This document shows, piece by piece, positions 2,515-28,351 of a stretch of DNA of 32,000 bases. A model generated the notes under the pieces. The model was not told the origin of the DNA, searched no databases, and saw only the letters and a list, made by a program, of their open reading frames with translations. The DNA comes from Microcystis aeruginosa NIES-843 (GTDB lineage Bacteria; Cyanobacteriota; Cyanobacteriia; Cyanobacteriales; Microcystaceae), in NCBI RefSeq assembly GCF_000010625.1, contig NC_010296.1, forward strand, positions 3,330,001-3,362,000, written 5' to 3'. Position 1 is the stretch's first letter. Every line of letters starts with the position of its first letter. Position numbers and translations under genes: made by a program.

Positions 2515-2650
2515 CCCCATCACCCCATCACCCCATCACCCCATCACCCCATCTCCCCCATCTCCCCCATCACCCCATCACCCCATCACCCCATCACCCC
2601 ATCACCCCATCACCCCACACCCCACACCCCACACCCCACACCCCACACAC
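2515..2650. repeat. C-rich microsatellite: 12 CCCCATCA-type octamer units, then 5 x CCCCACA heptamers (2613-2647)
   Basis: Read directly. The spurious ORF 2359-2688 (PHHPITPS repeats) is just this array translated. Confidence 0.9.
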
Positions 2651-7687: not shown

Positions 7688-9925
7688 TTAACTTCTAATA
7701 AAACGATCGATTGCTGTGTTCATTACCCCCACACGACTGGATAATTCCACAAGTTCCGTGGTGACAATATTATAATCCCCTAAATATTTATGGAGATTAG
7801 TTCCCTCTTGTTGATTGCCAATTTCTACTAACCTTTCCTCTCGCAATTCCTGCAAATGATCGAGGACTTCTTCTAAAGTATCTTCGAGGGGAGGTAAGGG
7901 AAGAGGAGGATTATTTGTTTGCAAAGCTTGGGTTAATTGCGTCAAAGCTTGGGTTATTTGTTGCGTGAACAGACTCAGATTAGGATGGGGAGGACTACCT
8001 CGATATTGTTCCAATTCCGTCAACAAAACTGTCACCCCGCGACCAAAACGGGGAATATAATTACTTAAAGTGATTGCCGGTTCCATTTGTGGAAAAGGTG
8101 TGCTAGGATCATCAATTAATCTTTGTAGGGCCGTTTGCATAGTTGTATTTGCTCGTCGAGCTTTATTGCGATGGGAAGATAAAATTGCAGTTTGATAGGA
8201 TGATTCTCCCAAATAAACTGCCATAACTGACTGAAAAAATATTTGATTAGCTTCTAATGCTTTAATGGCAGCGAGGGAAAAACGTTCATCTTCATTAAAC
8301 CGTAAAAAACCGAAGGAAAGTGCAAAGGCTAAAGCACTACCGATTAAAGTATAAACTATTCTGATATACTCTAAATTAATACCGTCATTGCTGGCATCCA
8401 GACGACTGATGATTAAAGCAAAAATTGTGATAAAAAATACGGCCAAACTATAGTGAAATCGCACCAAAGCTAAAGCGATCGCTATAGAAATCATCCCAAT
8501 AATTTCTAACCAGATCGGATTATCTATAATTGGCAACAATGCCAAAACAAAAAACGAGCCTAAAATCGTGCCAAACACCCGATTAAAAAAGCGTTGAAAA
8601 GTCAAGCTAAAATCTGGTTTTAACACAATAACTAAGGTTAAACCAATCCAAAAACTATGGGTAATTCCTAGCTTATGGTAAATCAAAACTCCTAGCGCAC
8701 TTCCCAAACCCAAGCGTAAACCATGGCGAAATAGGGGCGATTCTAGATTAAAATTAGATTTTAATGGTTCCCACCAAGCTTTTTCTTGACTGTACTCTTT
8801 TTCTATACCTTCAAAGTTCCGCTGCCAGGGATTTTTTTTATCGGAAAAGTTCTCGCTTTGCCGCAAATGTTGCGCTGTTTCACTGGCTATTTTTAGCTGT
8901 TTAAATAATTTTTTTAAACGATTATTTAATTGCGAAATTGCCACATAACTGCTATAATCATCCTGGGCATTTTCTAAAACTTTAGCTTGCAGGTTTTTTT
9001 GTTGCTCGATCGCCTTGAGTAATAGCTGCAAGCGCTCACAATCCGGTCGTTTATTTCTACCCAAAATTAACCAGGCAATATCTTCGCTAATTTCCGCCAC
9101 TTGCACGAGAATATCTTCTAATAAAATACCCACCGTGGTCAGTTGTGGCAAGGGATGAAGATGAAGCAATTCTCGCAGCGCGATTAAGCTGGTATTAATG
9201 CGATCGCTATCTTCGATCAAGACGATTAACAATTCCCGCAGCTCACTTTTTCCCCAACGTCCCCGACGCGTCAAGGTGACAGTTTTCCTAGAACGGAGCA
9301 ACAGTTGGCGGATTTTGTCAAAATATGGCTCCTCATTAGCATTAGAACGAGAGTGTAAGGGCAAAGAGCGGAGATAAGTGGCGATACCCTGAAAATTTTC
9401 CGCCGTTACCTGACGTAAAGGCTGATTAGGGCGAAAAGGCCAGATAAACAGGGCTAAAAAAATTGTCCATCCCCCTCCCAACACAGCGATTCCGGCCCGT
9501 TGTAAAGCGACGACAATATCTCCCGATGGCAAAGAAACAGCAAAAAGCAGCAATAAACTAATTACTACCCCAGCTAACGCCCCATTTTCCCCGTAAACCG
9601 TCAAATAACCCGCTAGAAACAACCCGCAAAAAACTATCACTACGGTCAATCCTAGCCAAGCACTGGCTAATGTGCCGATAATCAAAGCTAGAGCCATCCC
9701 GATAGTCGTAGCGACTAGGGTTTGCGCTCTCAGGCAGTAAAGTCCCCCTGCATCGGCTAAAATCAAGATTTGAGCCGCTAAACCGACCATTAACCCCAAT
9801 TCTGACTGATCTAAAATATCACCGATAATAATCGGTACCGCAATCGCTAATAAAGTCCGAATCCCCCGCTCGATCTCGATATCGCCACTAGGACGCAATA
9901 AAAAAGCAAATCGCTGAAGTAGCAT
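7688..9925 (-). CDS. FUSC-family (fusaric-acid-resistance-like, YccS/YhfK-type) integral membrane protein
   Basis: Two blocks of about 5-6 TM helices are separated by a long soluble helical linker and followed by a C-terminal soluble domain. This is the architecture typical of FUSC/ArAE proteins. Confidence 0.7.
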   Translation of the reverse strand: MLLQRFAFLLRPSGDIEIERGIRTLLAIAVPIIIGDILDQSELGLMVGLAAQILILADAGGLYCLRAQTLVATTIGMALALIIGTLASAWLGLTVVIVFCGLFLAGYLTVYGENGALAGVVISLLLLFAVSLPSGDIVVALQRAGIAVLGGGWTIFLALFIWPFRPNQPLRQVTAENFQGIATYLRSLPLHSRSNANEEPYFDKIRQLLLRSRKTVTLTRRGRWGKSELRELLIVLIEDSDRINTSLIALRELLHLHPLPQLTTVGILLEDILVQVAEISEDIAWLILGRNKRPDCERLQLLLKAIEQQKNLQAKVLENAQDDYSSYVAISQLNNRLKKLFKQLKIASETAQHLRQSENFSDKKNPWQRNFEGIEKEYSQEKAWWEPLKSNFNLESPLFRHGLRLGLGSALGVLIYHKLGITHSFWIGLTLVIVLKPDFSLTFQRFFNRVFGTILGSFFVLALLPIIDNPIWLEIIGMISIAIALALVRFHYSLAVFFITIFALIISRLDASNDGINLEYIRIVYTLIGSALAFALSFGFLRFNEDERFSLAAIKALEANQIFFQSVMAVYLGESSYQTAILSSHRNKARRANTTMQTALQRLIDDPSTPFPQMEPAITLSNYIPRFGRGVTVLLTELEQYRGSPPHPNLSLFTQQITQALTQLTQALQTNNPPLPLPPLEDTLEEVLDHLQELREERLVEIGNQQEGTNLHKYLGDYNIVTTELVELSSRVGVMNTAIDRFIRS

Positions 9926-9981: not shown

Positions 9982-11427
9982 TTAGGGCAGCCAACGGGGT
10001 TTAAAACCGGCGTTGAGTTCTTGAGGTAAAATTTTCGGGGTGCTATTGGGACTGAATTGATCGGGGAGTGGTAATAACCAGAGACGACCATCGGCAATGC
10101 TCGACCCCTCCCCGGTGACTAAATCATTTCTGACTCCAAAGGGTGTGGTTGCTAACTGATCAAATAATAAGGCCACGCCATCGGGAGACATACTCATCTG
10201 CACGTCACGATAATTAGGTAAGGCCAGCAGGGGGATCATTTTACCCGTTTTTAGCTCAATAATCGCTAAAAATGGTTCTTCTTTCACCTTGCCATCGCTG
10301 CCCATAACCAGATCGCTTTTCAGACAGTAAAGGGTTTTTTCCTGTCGCGGTTCAAATTCACAGCTAATAATCGGATTAGCTGTTCTTAATAGTAGTCTTG
10401 ACTCTCCCTGATCATTGAGCAAAAATAGCGATCGCTGATTATCTGGTTCCGATTTCACCATGAGTTTTTGGCGACCATCCCGGGAAAAAGCGAGTATTTT
10501 CTCGTAGGTAGGCAAAAATTGCGGTTTTCCCCCTTGCACATCCAAAGGAATCACCGCTACCCCTCCCGTTTGACTGACAACCGCTTTTTTACCGTCGGGA
10601 GATAGTAAAAAAATATCCCCTTGTATTCCTAACGGTCGCGATTGTCCATCATCGCTGATTACCCATAAACTGGCATCCCCCGGATTCCCGTGATTGATTC
10701 TCTGCACGATTAGGGTTTTGCCGTTATCTGAGAGATCAAAGCGCAGATTTTGATAGGTTTTCGCATCTAAAAACCTTTCTATACGACCAATGGGCAAATT
10801 TTGACCATTTTCGTCATGATTTAAACCCGTGGTCATCGTGTAAAGTTGCTGTTTCGGGGTGTCTCGTCCTAAGTCAGAGCGATCGAAGGCCGAGAATAAA
10901 ATTCTCTCTCCCCTCGGATAGATTTGAAAATCCGTGACCACCAGATCCGCAGGGGTAAGGATGGTTTTTTTCAGTTCTGTGACGTTATTTGCCCCCTGAA
11001 TGATATTACAGACGATTAAACGACCTCTTTCCTCTTGGTTGACTCCAATATAGGCAAAAGCTCGATCGTGGGTGTAAAATTCCCCGATAAAGTCCTCACC
11101 TTGAGCAATGGGTAACTTTACTTGATATTTTTTGCCGTAGATGGGCAATTCCGTCAAGGTATAGGTCAAGCGATCGCCAGACCAGCTAATTTTACCCGGC
11201 AAGGGAGGATCGATCACCAGTCCGGTTTCTATGTCGGAACGGTCAATCGGTCGATTAAAACTTAAAGTAAAATAATTGTCCCTAACGCCGATTTTTCGTC
11301 CTTGCCAGCTAAAATTCTCCCCTCGGGTAGGAACTTGATTTCCCTGGATCAAAATCGACGATATCCCGGCAATTAAGGCCAAAATAGTCGCTAACACTAA
11401 GCGATCGAACCAAGCTAATCTTTTCAT
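9982..11427 (-). CDS. Membrane-anchored hypothetical protein with Ig-like N-domain and TolB/WD40-like beta-propeller repeats
   Basis: It has an N-terminal TM helix, recurring SPDG/SDNG/SRDG beta-propeller blade motifs, and a long uninterrupted ORF with normal composition. Confidence 0.7.
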   Translation of the reverse strand: MKRLAWFDRLVLATILALIAGISSILIQGNQVPTRGENFSWQGRKIGVRDNYFTLSFNRPIDRSDIETGLVIDPPLPGKISWSGDRLTYTLTELPIYGKKYQVKLPIAQGEDFIGEFYTHDRAFAYIGVNQEERGRLIVCNIIQGANNVTELKKTILTPADLVVTDFQIYPRGERILFSAFDRSDLGRDTPKQQLYTMTTGLNHDENGQNLPIGRIERFLDAKTYQNLRFDLSDNGKTLIVQRINHGNPGDASLWVISDDGQSRPLGIQGDIFLLSPDGKKAVVSQTGGVAVIPLDVQGGKPQFLPTYEKILAFSRDGRQKLMVKSEPDNQRSLFLLNDQGESRLLLRTANPIISCEFEPRQEKTLYCLKSDLVMGSDGKVKEEPFLAIIELKTGKMIPLLALPNYRDVQMSMSPDGVALLFDQLATTPFGVRNDLVTGEGSSIADGRLWLLPLPDQFSPNSTPKILPQELNAGFKPRWLP

Positions 11428-11548
11428 CAGTTATCAGTTATCAGTTATCAGTTATCAGGAGTCAGTCAGGAGTCAGTCAGGAGGCAATAGGCAATAGGCA
11501 ATAGGCAATAGGCAATAGGCAATAGGCAATAGGCAATAGGCAATAGGC
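11428..11548. repeat. Microsatellite block: (CAGTTAT)x4, (CAGGAGTCAGT)-type units, (AGGCAAT) about x9.5
   Basis: Read directly. It begins at the nucleotide adjacent to the ATG (complement 11425-11427) of the 481-aa gene. Confidence 0.9.
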
Positions 11549-11569
11549 AGCTTTATTCTCCCCACACCC

Positions 11570-12354
11570 GTTACAGTAGAGCAGGAAGTCGCCTTCCCAC
11601 CCCCTGCTTCAAAACCGGACTTACGACTTTCGCCGTATCCGGCTCCTGAGTAACTAGGCTACTGTCATTAGTAGAATAATAATGGGAATTATTATTTCCT
11701 TGTCTATTCAACCCTCTTGGCTGTATCCCCACCAGACAAGATTGTTGGTTTTAGGGCGTATATGACCGTTGATTGTTGCTTAGACTTCCTAGTTACCCGT
11801 CCTTTGTCAGCATATCTTTGATATTACTCAAAGCCTTGGCTTTTAAGGACATCCTCTCCCTCTATTGACTTGCGGATGGTTTCCTACTGCCCCGAACGGG
11901 CAGAGTCAATCAGGGTTACTTCGTTCCCTATAACCATTGGTTGAACCCTTAGGATGATACTGTCCACAACAGAGTAACGGGAATGCCTTACTGATAGTGG
12001 TATGAGCTATCAGCCCCAACTCTGTTAACTTTTGTTTCGAGCCTGTCAGCCTTTTGGCTCGTGGGTGTTGACGATGGTTAATTCGTATCTTCGCCCCAGG
12101 GCTATCCATAGGTTCTGGCTCAACGGGTTTCTGATTTAGGCTATCAGATACCGCTTTTTTTTCCTCGCTCACTACCTCAGATGTACCAAGTCTAAAGCAG
12201 CAGGAAATGCCGTCACTCTAGGCATCTAGAGGACAGGACTAAGGTTATTACTAACCCGCACCTGTAGGGTTATAAAGTTATCAAGGTACTACATTTACCA
12301 AGCGGCTAATCCTCTAAACGTCTTACTGTCTAGTTTCTAGCCAACGAATCGCAC
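11570..12354 (-). mobile_element. ORF-less group II intron ribozyme, copy 1 (785 nt)
   Basis: On the minus-strand RNA the 5' end is GUGCGAUUCG (from 12354). A perfect 11-nt GAAA-tetraloop receptor is formed by GAACC-UAUGG (12115-12106) and CCUAAG-GGUUC (11953-11943). The candidate EBS2 is ACACCC (12068-12063). The candidate EBS1 is CAUACC, in the loop of the hairpin CUGAUAG/CUAUCAG (12013-11991). A minimal domain IV hairpin lies at 11675-11696. Domain V is GAGCCGGAUACGGCGAAAGUCGUAAGUCCGGUUU (11645-11612), followed by a domain VI helix GCAGGGGGU/ACUUCCUGC. The 3' end is ...CUACUGUAAC. Confidence 0.85.
11612..11645 (-). ncRNA. Group II intron domain V (copy 1)
   Basis: The element is 34 nt. 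The lower stem GAGCCGGA/UCCGGUUU contains the AGC catalytic triad. There is a 2-nt AG bulge on the 3' strand, and the upper stem UACGGC/GUCGUA is capped by GAAA. This matches the canonical domain V architecture. Confidence 0.9.
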
Positions 12355-12375
12355 CACACCCCACACCCTACACCC
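12355..12375. repeat. 21-nt micro-exon between the two introns, made of three heptamer units (minus strand GGGTGTA GGGTGTG GGGTGTG)
   Basis: Direct reading gives the plus strand cacaccccacaccctacaccc. Confidence 0.85.
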
Positions 12376-13160
12376 GTTACAGTAGAGCAGGAAGTCGCCT
12401 TCCCACCCCCTGCTTCAAAACCGGACTTACGACTTTCGCCGTATCCGGCTCCTGAGTAACTAGGCTACTGTCATTAGTAGAATAATAATGGGAATTATTA
12501 TTTCCTTGTCTATTCAACCCTCTTGGCTGTATCCCCACCAGACAAGATTGTTGGTTTTAGGGCGTATATGACCGTTGATTGTTGCTTAGACTTCCTAGTT
12601 ACCCGTCCTTTGTCAGCATATCTTTGATATTACTCAAAGCCTTGGCTTTTAAGGACATCCTCTCCCTCTATTGACTTGCGGATGGTTTCCTACTGCCCCG
12701 AACGGGCAGAGTCAATCAGGGTTACTTCGTTCCCTATAACCATTGGTTGAACCCTTAGGATGATACTGTCCACAACAGAGTAACGGGAATGCCTTACTGA
12801 TAGTGGTATGAGCTATCAGCCCCAACTCTGTTAACTTTTGTTTCGAGCCTGTCAGCCTTTTGGCTCGTGGGTGTTGACGATGGTTAATTCGTATCTTCGC
12901 CCCAGGGCTATCCATAGGTTCTGGCTCAACGGGTTTCTGATTTAGGCTATCAGATACCGCTTTTTTTTCCTCGCTCACTACCTCAGATGTACCAAGTCTA
13001 AAGCAGCAGGAAATGCCGTCACTCTAGGCATCTAGAGGACAGGACTAAGGTTATTACTAACCCGCACCTGTAGGGTTATAAAGTTATCAAGGTACTACAT
13101 TTACCAAGCGGCTAATCCTCTAAACGTCTTACTGTCTAGTTTCTAGCCAACGAATCGCAC
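12376..13160 (-). mobile_element. ORF-less group II intron ribozyme, copy 2 (785 nt; identical by eye to copy 1, offset 806 bp)
   Basis: It carries the same motifs as copy 1, shifted by +806 (domain V at 12418-12451). The embedded 88-aa ORFs in the two copies are amino-acid identical. Confidence 0.85.
12418..12451 (-). ncRNA. Group II intron domain V (copy 2)
   Basis: It is the same 34-nt sequence as 11612-11645. Confidence 0.9.
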
Positions 13161-13233
13161 CACACCCTACACCCTACACCCCACACCCTACACCCTACAC
13201 CCCACACCCCACACCCCACACCCCACACCCCAC
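13161..13233. repeat. Heptamer microsatellite (CCCTACA/CCCCACA, about 10 units), forming the 5' exon flank of intron copy 2 on the minus strand
   Basis: Read directly. Confidence 0.9.
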
Positions 13234-13360
13234 TTTCTTATCAGCTTTAGTAATGATTGTCATCGGTTTTTTCAATCGAATAAATAAAAACGCCCCCAAA
13301 AAGGAAGCGTTTTTTAACTTATCATGAGGACTTAGCAAAATGTGTGCAGAGTTAGAACGC

Positions 13361-13396
13361 GGATGTTGGATGGGGATCCAGCATCTGTTTATTTTT
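13361..13396 (+). terminator. Orphan intrinsic terminator-like hairpin
   Basis: gatgttggat (13362-13371) pairs with atccagcatc (13376-13385), giving 10 bp with one G-U and a GGGG loop. It is followed by tgtttattttt. No annotated plus-strand gene ends here. Confidence 0.45.
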
Positions 13397-13737: not shown

Positions 13738-13965
13738 ATGTCCAAACGGTTTAAATTCGACTCCTCCGAGATGATTTATCTCACCGATAAACTGATGAAT
13801 GCGGCCAGCAATCGTTACTCGATCGTCGTGCAAGTCGCTAGACGGGCCAAACGCGTCCGCTACGATACCGTAGAAAATATCGATGACCCGATGATTAAAC
13901 CCGTCCAACGGGCCCTGATGGAAATGACCGACGAATTAACCGAACCGGAATTATTACGCGATTAA
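13738..13965 (+). CDS. rpoZ: DNA-directed RNA polymerase subunit omega
   Basis: The 75-aa protein contains AASNRYSIVVQVARRAKRVRY...PMIKPVQRALMEMTDELTEPE, which closely matches the cyanobacterial RpoZ pattern. Confidence 0.9.
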   Translation: MSKRFKFDSSEMIYLTDKLMNAASNRYSIVVQVARRAKRVRYDTVENIDDPMIKPVQRALMEMTDELTEPELLRD

Positions 13966-28126: not shown

Positions 28127-28351
28127 TTAGGGTCTGCTGAAAAAGTTTTTCCTAGAAGCAGGGTGTAGGGTGTAGGGTGTAGGGTGTGGGGTGTGGGGTT
28201 TTACCGATTTTGAGGGGGTCAATTACCTAATTTTCAGGGAAAAAGTACCTGAATTTCCCCCTGATCACTCCCATGCCAGGCACTTTTGGATTTCAAAAAG
28301 GTCTAAAAGTCTTATCCAACAAGGTTTTTAGATTTATTCAGCAAACCCTAG
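28127..28351 (-). mobile_element. MITE-like dispersed element, copy B (inverted relative to 767-1008)
   Basis: The terminal inverted repeats are TTAGGGTCTGCTGAA (28127-28141) and TTCAGCAAACCCTAG (28337-28351), which match at 13 of 15 positions when one is reverse-complemented. It has an internal (GGGTGTR) heptamer array at 28161-28198. The body is homologous to copy A. Confidence 0.6.

Follow-up and report, generated by a model that had tools for sequence, protein, structure and literature searches.

A group II intron lacking an open reading frame in Microcystis aeruginosa probably homes to a heptamer microsatellite

Three target specificities of bacterial group II introns are listed in a 2015 review (PMC4424553): specific homing sites, transcription terminators and the attC sites of integrons. 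Introns without an open reading frame (ORF) are rare in bacteria and nearly always occur together with related ORF-containing copies (PMC4424553). In Thermosynechococcus elongatus, ORF-less introns of the TeI3/TeI4 family (type IIB1, chloroplast-like (CL)) arose from one deletion and are mobilised in trans by "driver" proteins (PMC2882425); one member of the system, TeI4h, selects no 3′-exon nucleotide (PMC2882425). Here, we analysed a 32,000-nucleotide (nt) stretch of the Microcystis aeruginosa NIES-843 genome (NC_010296.1, positions 3,330,001 to 3,362,000; hereafter the window, whose own coordinates are used throughout), which carries two tandem copies of an ORF-less group II intron within an array of the heptamer GGGTGTR. 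We consider it likely that the native DNA target of this intron is the boundary that follows two consecutive units of an intergenic (GGGTGTR)n array, and that it would be entered by retrohoming.

The Microcystis intron is similar to TeI3/TeI4 in several respects: the host is a cyanobacterium, the element appears to be a compact ORF-less derivative of an ORF-containing IIB intron, near-identical copies occur mostly in intergenic regions or within other mobile DNA, and the target would be set by pairing of the exon-binding sites EBS1, EBS2 and EBS3 with the corresponding intron-binding sites (IBS), IBS2 extending to about −14. The two systems differ in that the T. elongatus targets are unique sites, an IS200-type element or the ORF of another intron, whereas the Microcystis target is a tandem repeat with many sites, and in that T. 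elongatus has named drivers whereas the Microcystis intron is known from sequence alone. RmInt1 of Sinorhizobium meliloti has as its natural target the insertion sequence (IS) ISRm2011-2, which is itself a repeated genomic element. RmInt1 (IIB3, class D; PMC4075523) likewise reads the 5′ exon via EBS2 and EBS1 and the 3′ exon via a single EBS3/IBS3 pair, and differs from the Microcystis intron in its class, in a protein without an endonuclease domain and in a target that is an IS and not a microsatellite. With a C as EBS3, retargeted RmInt1 produced head-to-tail tandem insertions in which the first G of the intron acted as IBS3 (PMC4075523).

Other retroelements offer likenesses of strategy. 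Group IIC introns, which target terminators and attC sites, home to abundant, recurring non-coding motifs that serve as harmless, self-renewing sites (PMC4424553), as the Microcystis intron may do; the nested introns of Methanosarcina acetivorans target other introns (PMC4424553). The Microcystis intron would use ordinary EBS1 plus EBS2 pairing. In animals, retrotransposons without long terminal repeats (non-LTR elements) specific for microsatellites or telomere repeats (PMC4640811) are likewise retroelements that have specialised on a tandem simple repeat and have a safe harbour in it. These elements differ in being eukaryotic, in not being ribozymes and in not splicing out. Their target is read by a protein endonuclease and not by RNA–DNA pairing. 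Mechanistically, the Microcystis intron is of the "homing site" class and has textbook machinery, the unusual part being its microsatellite target. Its strategy is closer to that of introns on abundant harmless motifs and to that of the animal repeat-specific elements.

The two intron copies (copy A and copy B, Table 1) are 785 nt each on the minus strand, show 0 mismatches in a script comparison and recur with a period of 806 nt. Both start with GTGCG and end in ...CTACTGTAAC (also written ...CUACUGUAAC), and neither contains a long ORF. Each copy matches the Rfam model of group II domains V and VI (RF00029) with 55 bits, against a gathering score of 40, and further hallmarks of the group are the GUGCG...AC ends and a bulged A located 7 nt from the 3′ end. 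Domain V carries a GAAA tetraloop, and a matching UAUGG/CCUAAG receptor is found in the intron; this receptor would dock the GAAA loop. Domain I spans about 430 nt and has IIB features, and a search with the Rfam D1–D4 models returned only a sub-threshold partial match (RF01999, 26.7 bits versus a gathering score of 36). Consistent with a CL intron of type IIB, the predicted EBS1 lies in the terminal loop of Id3 with alpha′ adjoining, and an EBS2 is present, unlike in IIC introns. We classify the element as a group II intron without an ORF, of type IIB and chloroplast-like; both copies are presumably competent for splicing.

The ORF-containing relatives of the intron encode proteins of 578–591 amino acids (aa) with reverse transcriptase (RT), maturase (X) and HNH domains. 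Their best match among solved structures is the T.el4h RT (6ME0, E=1e-117, versus 1e-36 for LtrA), a protein of the chloroplast-like, IIB kind, and this resemblance suggests ordinary EBS/IBS-guided retrohoming. Read by eye, the Microcystis intron resembles domain IV of these relatives near the former start codon, as expected for an ORF-deletion derivative that still binds the protein.

As the original prediction had it, both copies are inserted at a phase boundary of the heptamer array on the minus strand, and the heptamers fall in phase once both introns are deleted in silico. The predicted 5′ exon, ...GGGUGUA GGGUGUG, is that of copy A; in copy B, positions −14 to −8 read GGGUGUG, which leaves the proposed pairing unaffected. 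The sequence continues after copy B with GGGTGTG GGGAGAA.

A survey of the flanks of other copies had been set beforehand as a test of the repeat as a homing site. We scanned metagenomes with the first 25 nt of the intron and obtained 12 loci, seven of which (L121, L122, L124, L125, L128, L129 and L130) carry the intron with 98.6–100% identity over the stretch present; L124 and L129 are one locus. The 5′ flanks read ...GGGTGTA GGGTGTG GGGTGTG (L121), ...cttgaaaga GGGTGTA GGGTGTG GGGTGTG (L122), ...ggggaagta GGGTGTG GGGTGTG (L124/L129), ...GGGTATA GGGTGTA GGGTGTG (L125 and L130) and ...GGGTGTG GGGTGTA (L128), so that every surveyed 5′ flank ends in two in-phase GGGTGTR units. Sequences further than 14–21 nt upstream of the intron are unrelated between loci. 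On the other side, the four known 3′ flanks, which start with GGGAGATT (L121), GGGTGTGGGGTTTT (L125), GGGTGTA (copy A) and GGGTGTGGGGAGAA (copy B), all begin with GGG. Together with the window, seven loci with eight insertions share an invariant junction, GGGTGTR GGGTGT(G/a) on the 5′ side and GGG wherever the 3′ flank is known. In L124, L125 and L130, only two perfect units are present, which is the span that EBS2 plus EBS1 would read, and two heptamer units thus appear sufficient as a target. Scans of viral contigs gave no match to the 3′ end of the intron or to the EBS1 hairpin.

The complete copies L121 (99.7% identical) and L125 (98.6%) have unaltered EBS1 and EBS2; the receptor region of the L125 copy is altered. 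Two other copies are interrupted. In L122 (12607-14652), the intron is split at about position 137 by an IS with a 400-aa transposase, ISL3-like by eye, and in L124 (3410-4556), a 1.1-kb insertion lies at intron position 115 with positions 113–115 duplicated, and a second break follows position 228.

Intron-free alleles were found at two of these loci. Looking up the rpoZ product led to the locus orthologous to the tandem pair in ten other Microcystis assemblies. Following AAAGCTGATAAGAAAG, an intron-free (GGGTGTR)n array is present in five loci, which represent four distinct alleles (L143=L151, L152, L144 and L148), and the remaining orthologous loci have other heptamers or octamers. The L125 intron sits between the penultimate and the last units of an array whose ortholog in the window (28161-28195) is flanked by the same unique sequence on both sides and has no intron. 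Thus, the intron is an insertion polymorphism at no fewer than two loci, and near-identical copies at EBS-matching sites together with intron-free alleles at two loci are what a mobile intron displays. The flanks at seven loci, the empty alleles and the covarying EBS positions described below all support the proposal that the repeat is the homing site.

Which segments of the intron could read the repeat? CAUACC, in the 9-nt loop of a CUGAUAG/CUAUCAG hairpin, and ACACCC (12068-12063) had been proposed as EBS1 and EBS2, respectively, and both were found at those positions. CATACC is the sole 6-mer of the intron that pairs with GGUGUG at no more than one G-U, and ACACCC is its sole perfect complement of GGGUGU; the chance of finding such a partner in a random 9-mer of intron composition is about 0.005 for CATACC and about 0.0007 for ACACCC. 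We compared ten introns: the Microcystis intron, three ORF-containing relatives that match the metagenome query at their 5′ end only (L131, L126 and L132, the first two from an Oculatellaceae metagenome-assembled genome (MAG)), and introns of the same class from Hormoscilla and Okeania. The latter came from a scan of genome contigs with an over-general domain V pattern, which returned 120 loci from many phyla and none from Microcystis.

All ten introns share the same order of elements: a variable 8–9-nt junction, a hairpin P1, a small hairpin P2 with an AAAA loop and a long stem that ends in hairpin P3, followed by an alpha–alpha′ segment complementary to an upstream loop and by the 3′ strand of the tetraloop receptor. 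The covariation of alpha and alpha′ among the relatives was read from the alignment by eye. Over the ten introns, all cells are paired in P1 (60/60), in P2 (30/30) and in the inner five pairs of P3 (50/50), with several pair types at most positions. Consistent with this, RNAalifold run on nine introns predicts P1 and P3, leaves the junction and the P3 loop unpaired and finds compensatory changes in 8 of 11 pairs. The structure model had been named as a test of the original prediction, and neither proposed EBS segment falls in a paired region of this comparative model.

In the Microcystis intron, the junction is CA-ACACCC-A and the loop of P3 is CUCAUACCA. At these two positions, each relative matches the 5′ exon of its own insertion site. 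The P3 loop of L132 (CAAGCAU) pairs with GUGCUUG, that of L126 (GCAGU) with ACUGU, that of the Hormoscilla intron HorD (UGUAAUU) with AAUUACA and that of the Okeania intron (CAUAAG) with CUUAUG, all of them ending at −1. The corresponding junctions pair with UAGGC at −13 to −9 (GUCUA, L132), with UGGCAU at −12 to −7 (AUGUCA, L126) and with UGGUAU at −13 to −8 (AUACCA, HorD); no junction pairing is listed for Okeania. When all intron/exon combinations were scored, the loop formed on average 6.2 contiguous pairs from −1 with its own exon and 2.6 with foreign exons, and the mean junction score was 5.0 with the own exon versus 3.5 with foreign ones. Because loop and junction match the 5′ exon of each intron's own insertion site, we regard the assignment of EBS1, as judged from these comparisons, as strong and that of EBS2 as good. 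CAUACC thus lies in a hairpin loop, as was proposed; the hairpin covaries, and its loop is open in RNAalifold. ACACCC is likewise unpaired and covaries with the exons, its setting being a single-stranded junction 5′ of a hairpin and not, as had been expected, a hairpin loop.

A fold of the single sequence gave paired probabilities of at most 0.07 across the 9-nt EBS1 loop. The same fold half-paired EBS2, joining its CCC to GGG at intron positions 258–260; we rejected this pairing, as that GGG, judged by eye from the alignment, belongs to a small local hairpin in the relatives.

For the 3′ exon, a conserved GUGGAYAGU motif 3′ of Id3 has U at its variable position in relatives whose exon has A at +1 (L132, L131, HorD and Okeania), and C (C393) in the Microcystis intron, whose exon has G at +1. 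The C393–G(+1) combination fits an EBS3–IBS3 pair of the IIB type, which we propose tentatively, as it represents one covariation event.

Two side observations concern the relatives. In the Hormoscilla MAG OZ001293.3 (L043, L058, L060, L065, L076, L081 and L118), a family of introns of about 870 nt, too short for an ORF encoding an intron-encoded protein (IEP), has proliferated to at least nine copies; its junctions are flanked by TAACCT(N3-4)..GRKTCT, its EBS1 (AGACUC) is clear, and its best complement to TAACCT overlaps the strand of the tetraloop receptor and does not lie in the usual EBS2 junction. The ORF-containing relative at L126 (11700-11826) splits an apparent pdxJ coding sequence (...AELAGADGITV at the junction), a housekeeping and not an intergenic location.

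How would the intron enter the repeat? We propose that an RT/maturase, presumably provided by an ORF-containing intron elsewhere in the genome, would bind the excised RNA in trans. EBS2 would pair with GGGUGU of the penultimate unit (−14 to −9) and EBS1, from its place in the Id3 terminal loop, with the GGUGUG that ends the last unit (−6 to −1). A single EBS3 nucleotide, probably C393, would pair with G at +1, whereupon the RNA would reverse-splice into the heptamer site and be copied into DNA. Retrohoming, the trans-acting protein and EBS3 are parts of this scheme that we infer from sequence comparison. Because the 14-nt target recurs at each phase boundary of each array, the intron may find hundreds of harmless, non-coding landing sites, and more than one copy per array would be possible.

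Several observations weigh against this scheme. No IEP was found in the window, nor did tblastn detect one in the Microcystis loci retrieved, and the metagenome scan with the first 25 nt yielded no ORF-containing Microcystis copy that shares the 5′ end of the intron. The EBS1 pairing includes one G-U, and L128, a locus that stops at intron position 107, has an A at −1 that would form a C-A mismatch with C351. Covariation is weaker for EBS2 than for EBS1, conservation at −14 to −9 cannot be fully separated from simple membership of an array given that the target is a repeat, and in HorA, a more distant Hormoscilla family, the sequence that best complements the conserved TAACCT flank is found, as read by eye, at another place in the intron. 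Across 217 kb of Microcystis sequence, in which intron-bearing loci are over-represented, 100 sites with the 14-nt motif plus a following G are empty and 9 are occupied. The insertions with a known 3′ flank sit at the 3′ end of their arrays: no more than one full unit lies downstream of copy B, L121 (6305-7088) and L125 (2161-2944), and three spacer units separate copy A from copy B, while up to 25 empty sites lie upstream. The earlier expectation that every array of this type is a multi-site target thus holds in potential, with about 100 matching sites standing empty. Empty sites and the 3′-end position suggest that pairing alone may not define the target, or that mobility is rare. The bias towards the 3′ edge could reflect rare mobility, growth of the array on its 5′ side after insertion or some other restriction of the sites, for which protein contacts, replication polarity and secondary structure of the G3N4 repeat are candidates.

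The tandem pair has a counterpart in the record AP019314.1. This record is Microcystis viridis NIES-102. It encodes the 481-aa protein that neighbours the introns identically, and over 9.4 kb it differs from the window by 14 substitutions and one 21-nt indel. In AP019314.1 (L133:3073-3074), the ten upstream units and the downstream unit are as in the window, the spacer 12355-12375 is missing and the introns abut (GTAAC|GTGCG). The missing spacer could reflect a genuine deletion of 21 nt, misassembly of one of the two records, an independent event or re-invasion of an occupied site. All 14 substitutions fall within the region of a FUSC-family gene (window 8000-8993), a cluster suggestive of recombination over a short tract between strains that are very close.

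Does the pair record two insertions? One intron together with its heptamers might instead have been duplicated by unequal crossing-over or slippage, or the pair might be an assembly artefact of a repeat flanked by repeats. Such an origin would account for copies that are 100% identical with an 806-nt period; the heptamers on both sides of the intron are potential substrates for unequal exchange, the array is hypervariable among strains, and NIES-102 differs exactly at this junction, so that one assembly may be wrong. A crossover should have passed on the final upstream units, A,A,G, to its product, whereas the spacer reads A,G,G. The A/G pattern of the window array without its introns is GGGGAAGAAG.AGG.G, and its tail AAGAGGG (..AAG.AGG.G) matches the empty alleles L143 and L151 (AAGAGGGG). 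Since the spacer units resemble those of the original array, two separate insertions are favoured over duplication by unequal exchange. In addition, heptamer-mediated exchange cannot yield abutting copies, whereas retrohoming with EBS3 = C did so (PMC4075523). An inserted copy recreates GGGTGTG|G at its own 5′ end, and the tandem logic of RmInt1 would thus apply here too. We therefore judge duplication or artefact improbable, and uptake of several copies by one array most likely gave rise to the pair.

The association of intron and repeat could also be one of descent, the intron having landed once and then spread with its flanking heptamers by recombination or within a larger mobile unit, or the heptamers having been generated at the intron ends. 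Retrohoming makes no target duplications or repeats. Common flanks of all copies would also be expected if flanks were co-mobilised, and intergenic DNA in Microcystis is a patchwork of mobile and repetitive sequence; the common flank is nevertheless as short as 14 nt (5′) and 3 nt (3′) and varies in length and composition by locus, the same arrays are intron-free at orthologous positions, and the common flank is complementary to two segments at covarying EBS positions, which makes descent very hard to credit. A more serious, if still unlikely, possibility is that the copies are immobile relics that have no partner protein, are passively inherited and perhaps do not splice. The negative search for an IEP nearby, the many empty candidate sites and the damage to some copies (L122 and L124 carry IS insertions, and the receptor region of L125 is altered) are in its favour, and an identity of 98.6–100% across loci and strains, presence/absence variation between close strains and the multicopy group II RTs reported in Microcystis genomes (PMC8934634) speak against it. 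In particular, M. aeruginosa NIES-843 encodes seven RTs of group II introns, of which six are near-identical and have an HNH/McrA domain (PMC8934634); a homology search with the IEP of a relative gave 7,975 strong matches, with no Microcystis protein among the best 120. Finally, a terminator-like hairpin that shares the strand of the introns (13314-13286) and precedes the array by about 50 nt could suggest a IIC-like intron placed by the hairpin and not by the heptamers. This reading is already contradicted and has next to no chance of being right: the intron combines an EBS2 with a large domain I (about 430 nt) that has IIB features, the proteins of its relatives have HNH and match the T.el4h RT, IIC introns lack EBS2 (PMC4075523) and their proteins lack an endonuclease domain (PMC4424553), and no hairpin lies directly upstream of the other insertion sites.

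Returning to homing into the repeat, we lean slightly towards a more specific picture, in which an ORF-less IIB lineage would have specialised on a G-rich heptamer microsatellite, potentially forming G-quadruplexes, as a multicopy, self-renewing safe harbour. Consecutive units would supply IBS2 and IBS1 and the next G would supply IBS3. Because the intron's own first base is G, an occupied site would remain a target, and spaced or abutting copies could stack with a preference for the 3′ edge of the array.

The introns sit in a mosaic of heptamer repeats between a divergent rpoZ-like gene (13738-13965, plus strand) and the 481-aa gene (11427-9982, minus strand). The interval between these genes (11426-11549, 13161-13233; L143–L152) combines CCTATTG, CTGATAA, GGGTGTR, GGGGACGT, CCCTAAAT and other heptamer or octamer arrays, and this mosaic differs in nearly every strain. 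The interval also contains an IS605/TnpB-type gene in L144 and L150 and a gene with a Photo_RC (PF00124) domain in L152. In all three (GGGTGTR)n arrays of the window (13161-13233, 28161-28195 and 2616-2643), the GGG runs of the intron-sense strand are separated by 4 nt, as in a canonical G-quadruplex motif, and this spacing could affect which units the intron can reach. Two terminator-like hairpins, 13286-13314 (minus) and 13359-13388 (plus), lie about 45 nt apart and about 50 nt upstream of the array; if the minus-strand hairpin is functional, the introns may receive little read-through transcription. A promoter scan found promoter-like sites to be no more numerous than in shuffled sequence, a result that is silent on transcription of the introns.

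Table 1. Coordinates of the intron copies, their predicted functional elements and the heptamer arrays in the window.
Feature	Position	Strand	Remark
ORF-less group II intron, copy A	12376..13160	-	785 nt, GUGCG...GUAAC
ORF-less group II intron, copy B	11570..12354	-	identical to copy A
5′ exon array (GGGTGTR)x10	13161..13233	-	ends GGGTGTA GGGTGTA GGGTGTG
Last 14 nt of 5′ array	13174..13161	-	predicted IBS2 GGGUGU (-14..-9) and IBS1 GGUGUG (-6..-1) for copy A
Spacer GGGTGTA GGGTGTG GGGTGTG	12355..12375	-	copy A 3′ exon and copy B 5′ exon (predicted IBS2 and IBS1)
Copy B 3′ exon GGGTGTGGGG	11560..11569	-	last heptamer plus GGG; +1 = G, candidate IBS3
Predicted EBS2 ACACCC (intron 287-292)	copy B 12063..12068; copy A 12869-12874	-	junction 5′ of hairpin P1
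Hairpin P1 CGAGCC...GGCUCG	copy B 12038..12061; copy A 12844-12867	-	adjoins EBS2 on 3′ side
Id3 terminal hairpin CUGAUAG-(CUCAUACCA)-CUAUCAG	copy B 11991..12013; copy A 12797-12819	-	
Predicted EBS1 CAUACC (intron 351-356)	copy B 11999-12004; copy A 12805-12810	-	in 9-nt loop CUCAUACCA
alpha′ AGGCAU	copy B 11983..11988; copy A 12789-12794	-	directly 3′ of EBS1 hairpin
alpha AUGCCU	copy B 12220-12225; copy A 13026-13031	-	complement of alpha′
Candidate EBS3 C393 in GUGGACAGU	copy B 11962; copy A 12768	-	tentative
zeta: CCUAAG strand, 11-nt-type tetraloop receptor	copy B 11948..11953	-	pairs with UAUGG 12106-12110
Domains V and VI	copy B 11570..11647; copy A 12376-12453	-	branch A 11577 (copy B), 12383 (copy A)
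Empty array (GGGTGTR)x5	28161..28195	+	orthologous to array occupied in metagenome contig L125
Empty array (GGGTGTG)x4	2616..2643	-	octamer repeats follow

In a literature search of incomplete coverage, and thus as a weak negative, neither a group II intron that homes to a simple repeat nor any work on the group II intron RNAs of Microcystis came to light. If our reading is correct, this intron would represent the first bacterial retroelement that is RNA-guided and specific for a microsatellite and would add a fourth kind of target to those of bacterial group II introns. Targeting a simple repeat via EBS/IBS pairing would be a further way for a retroelement to spread without damage to its host, in parallel to the microsatellite-specific non-LTR elements of animals and with RNA in place of protein recognition. 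For Microcystis itself, the intron's presence or absence would add a cheap strain marker to the hypervariable heptamer arrays, and repeats flanked by repeats probably cause breaks and mis-joins when bloom metagenomes are assembled. The arrays may also provide a natural test system for the share of the 5′ exon in target specificity and for the re-invasion of an occupied site.

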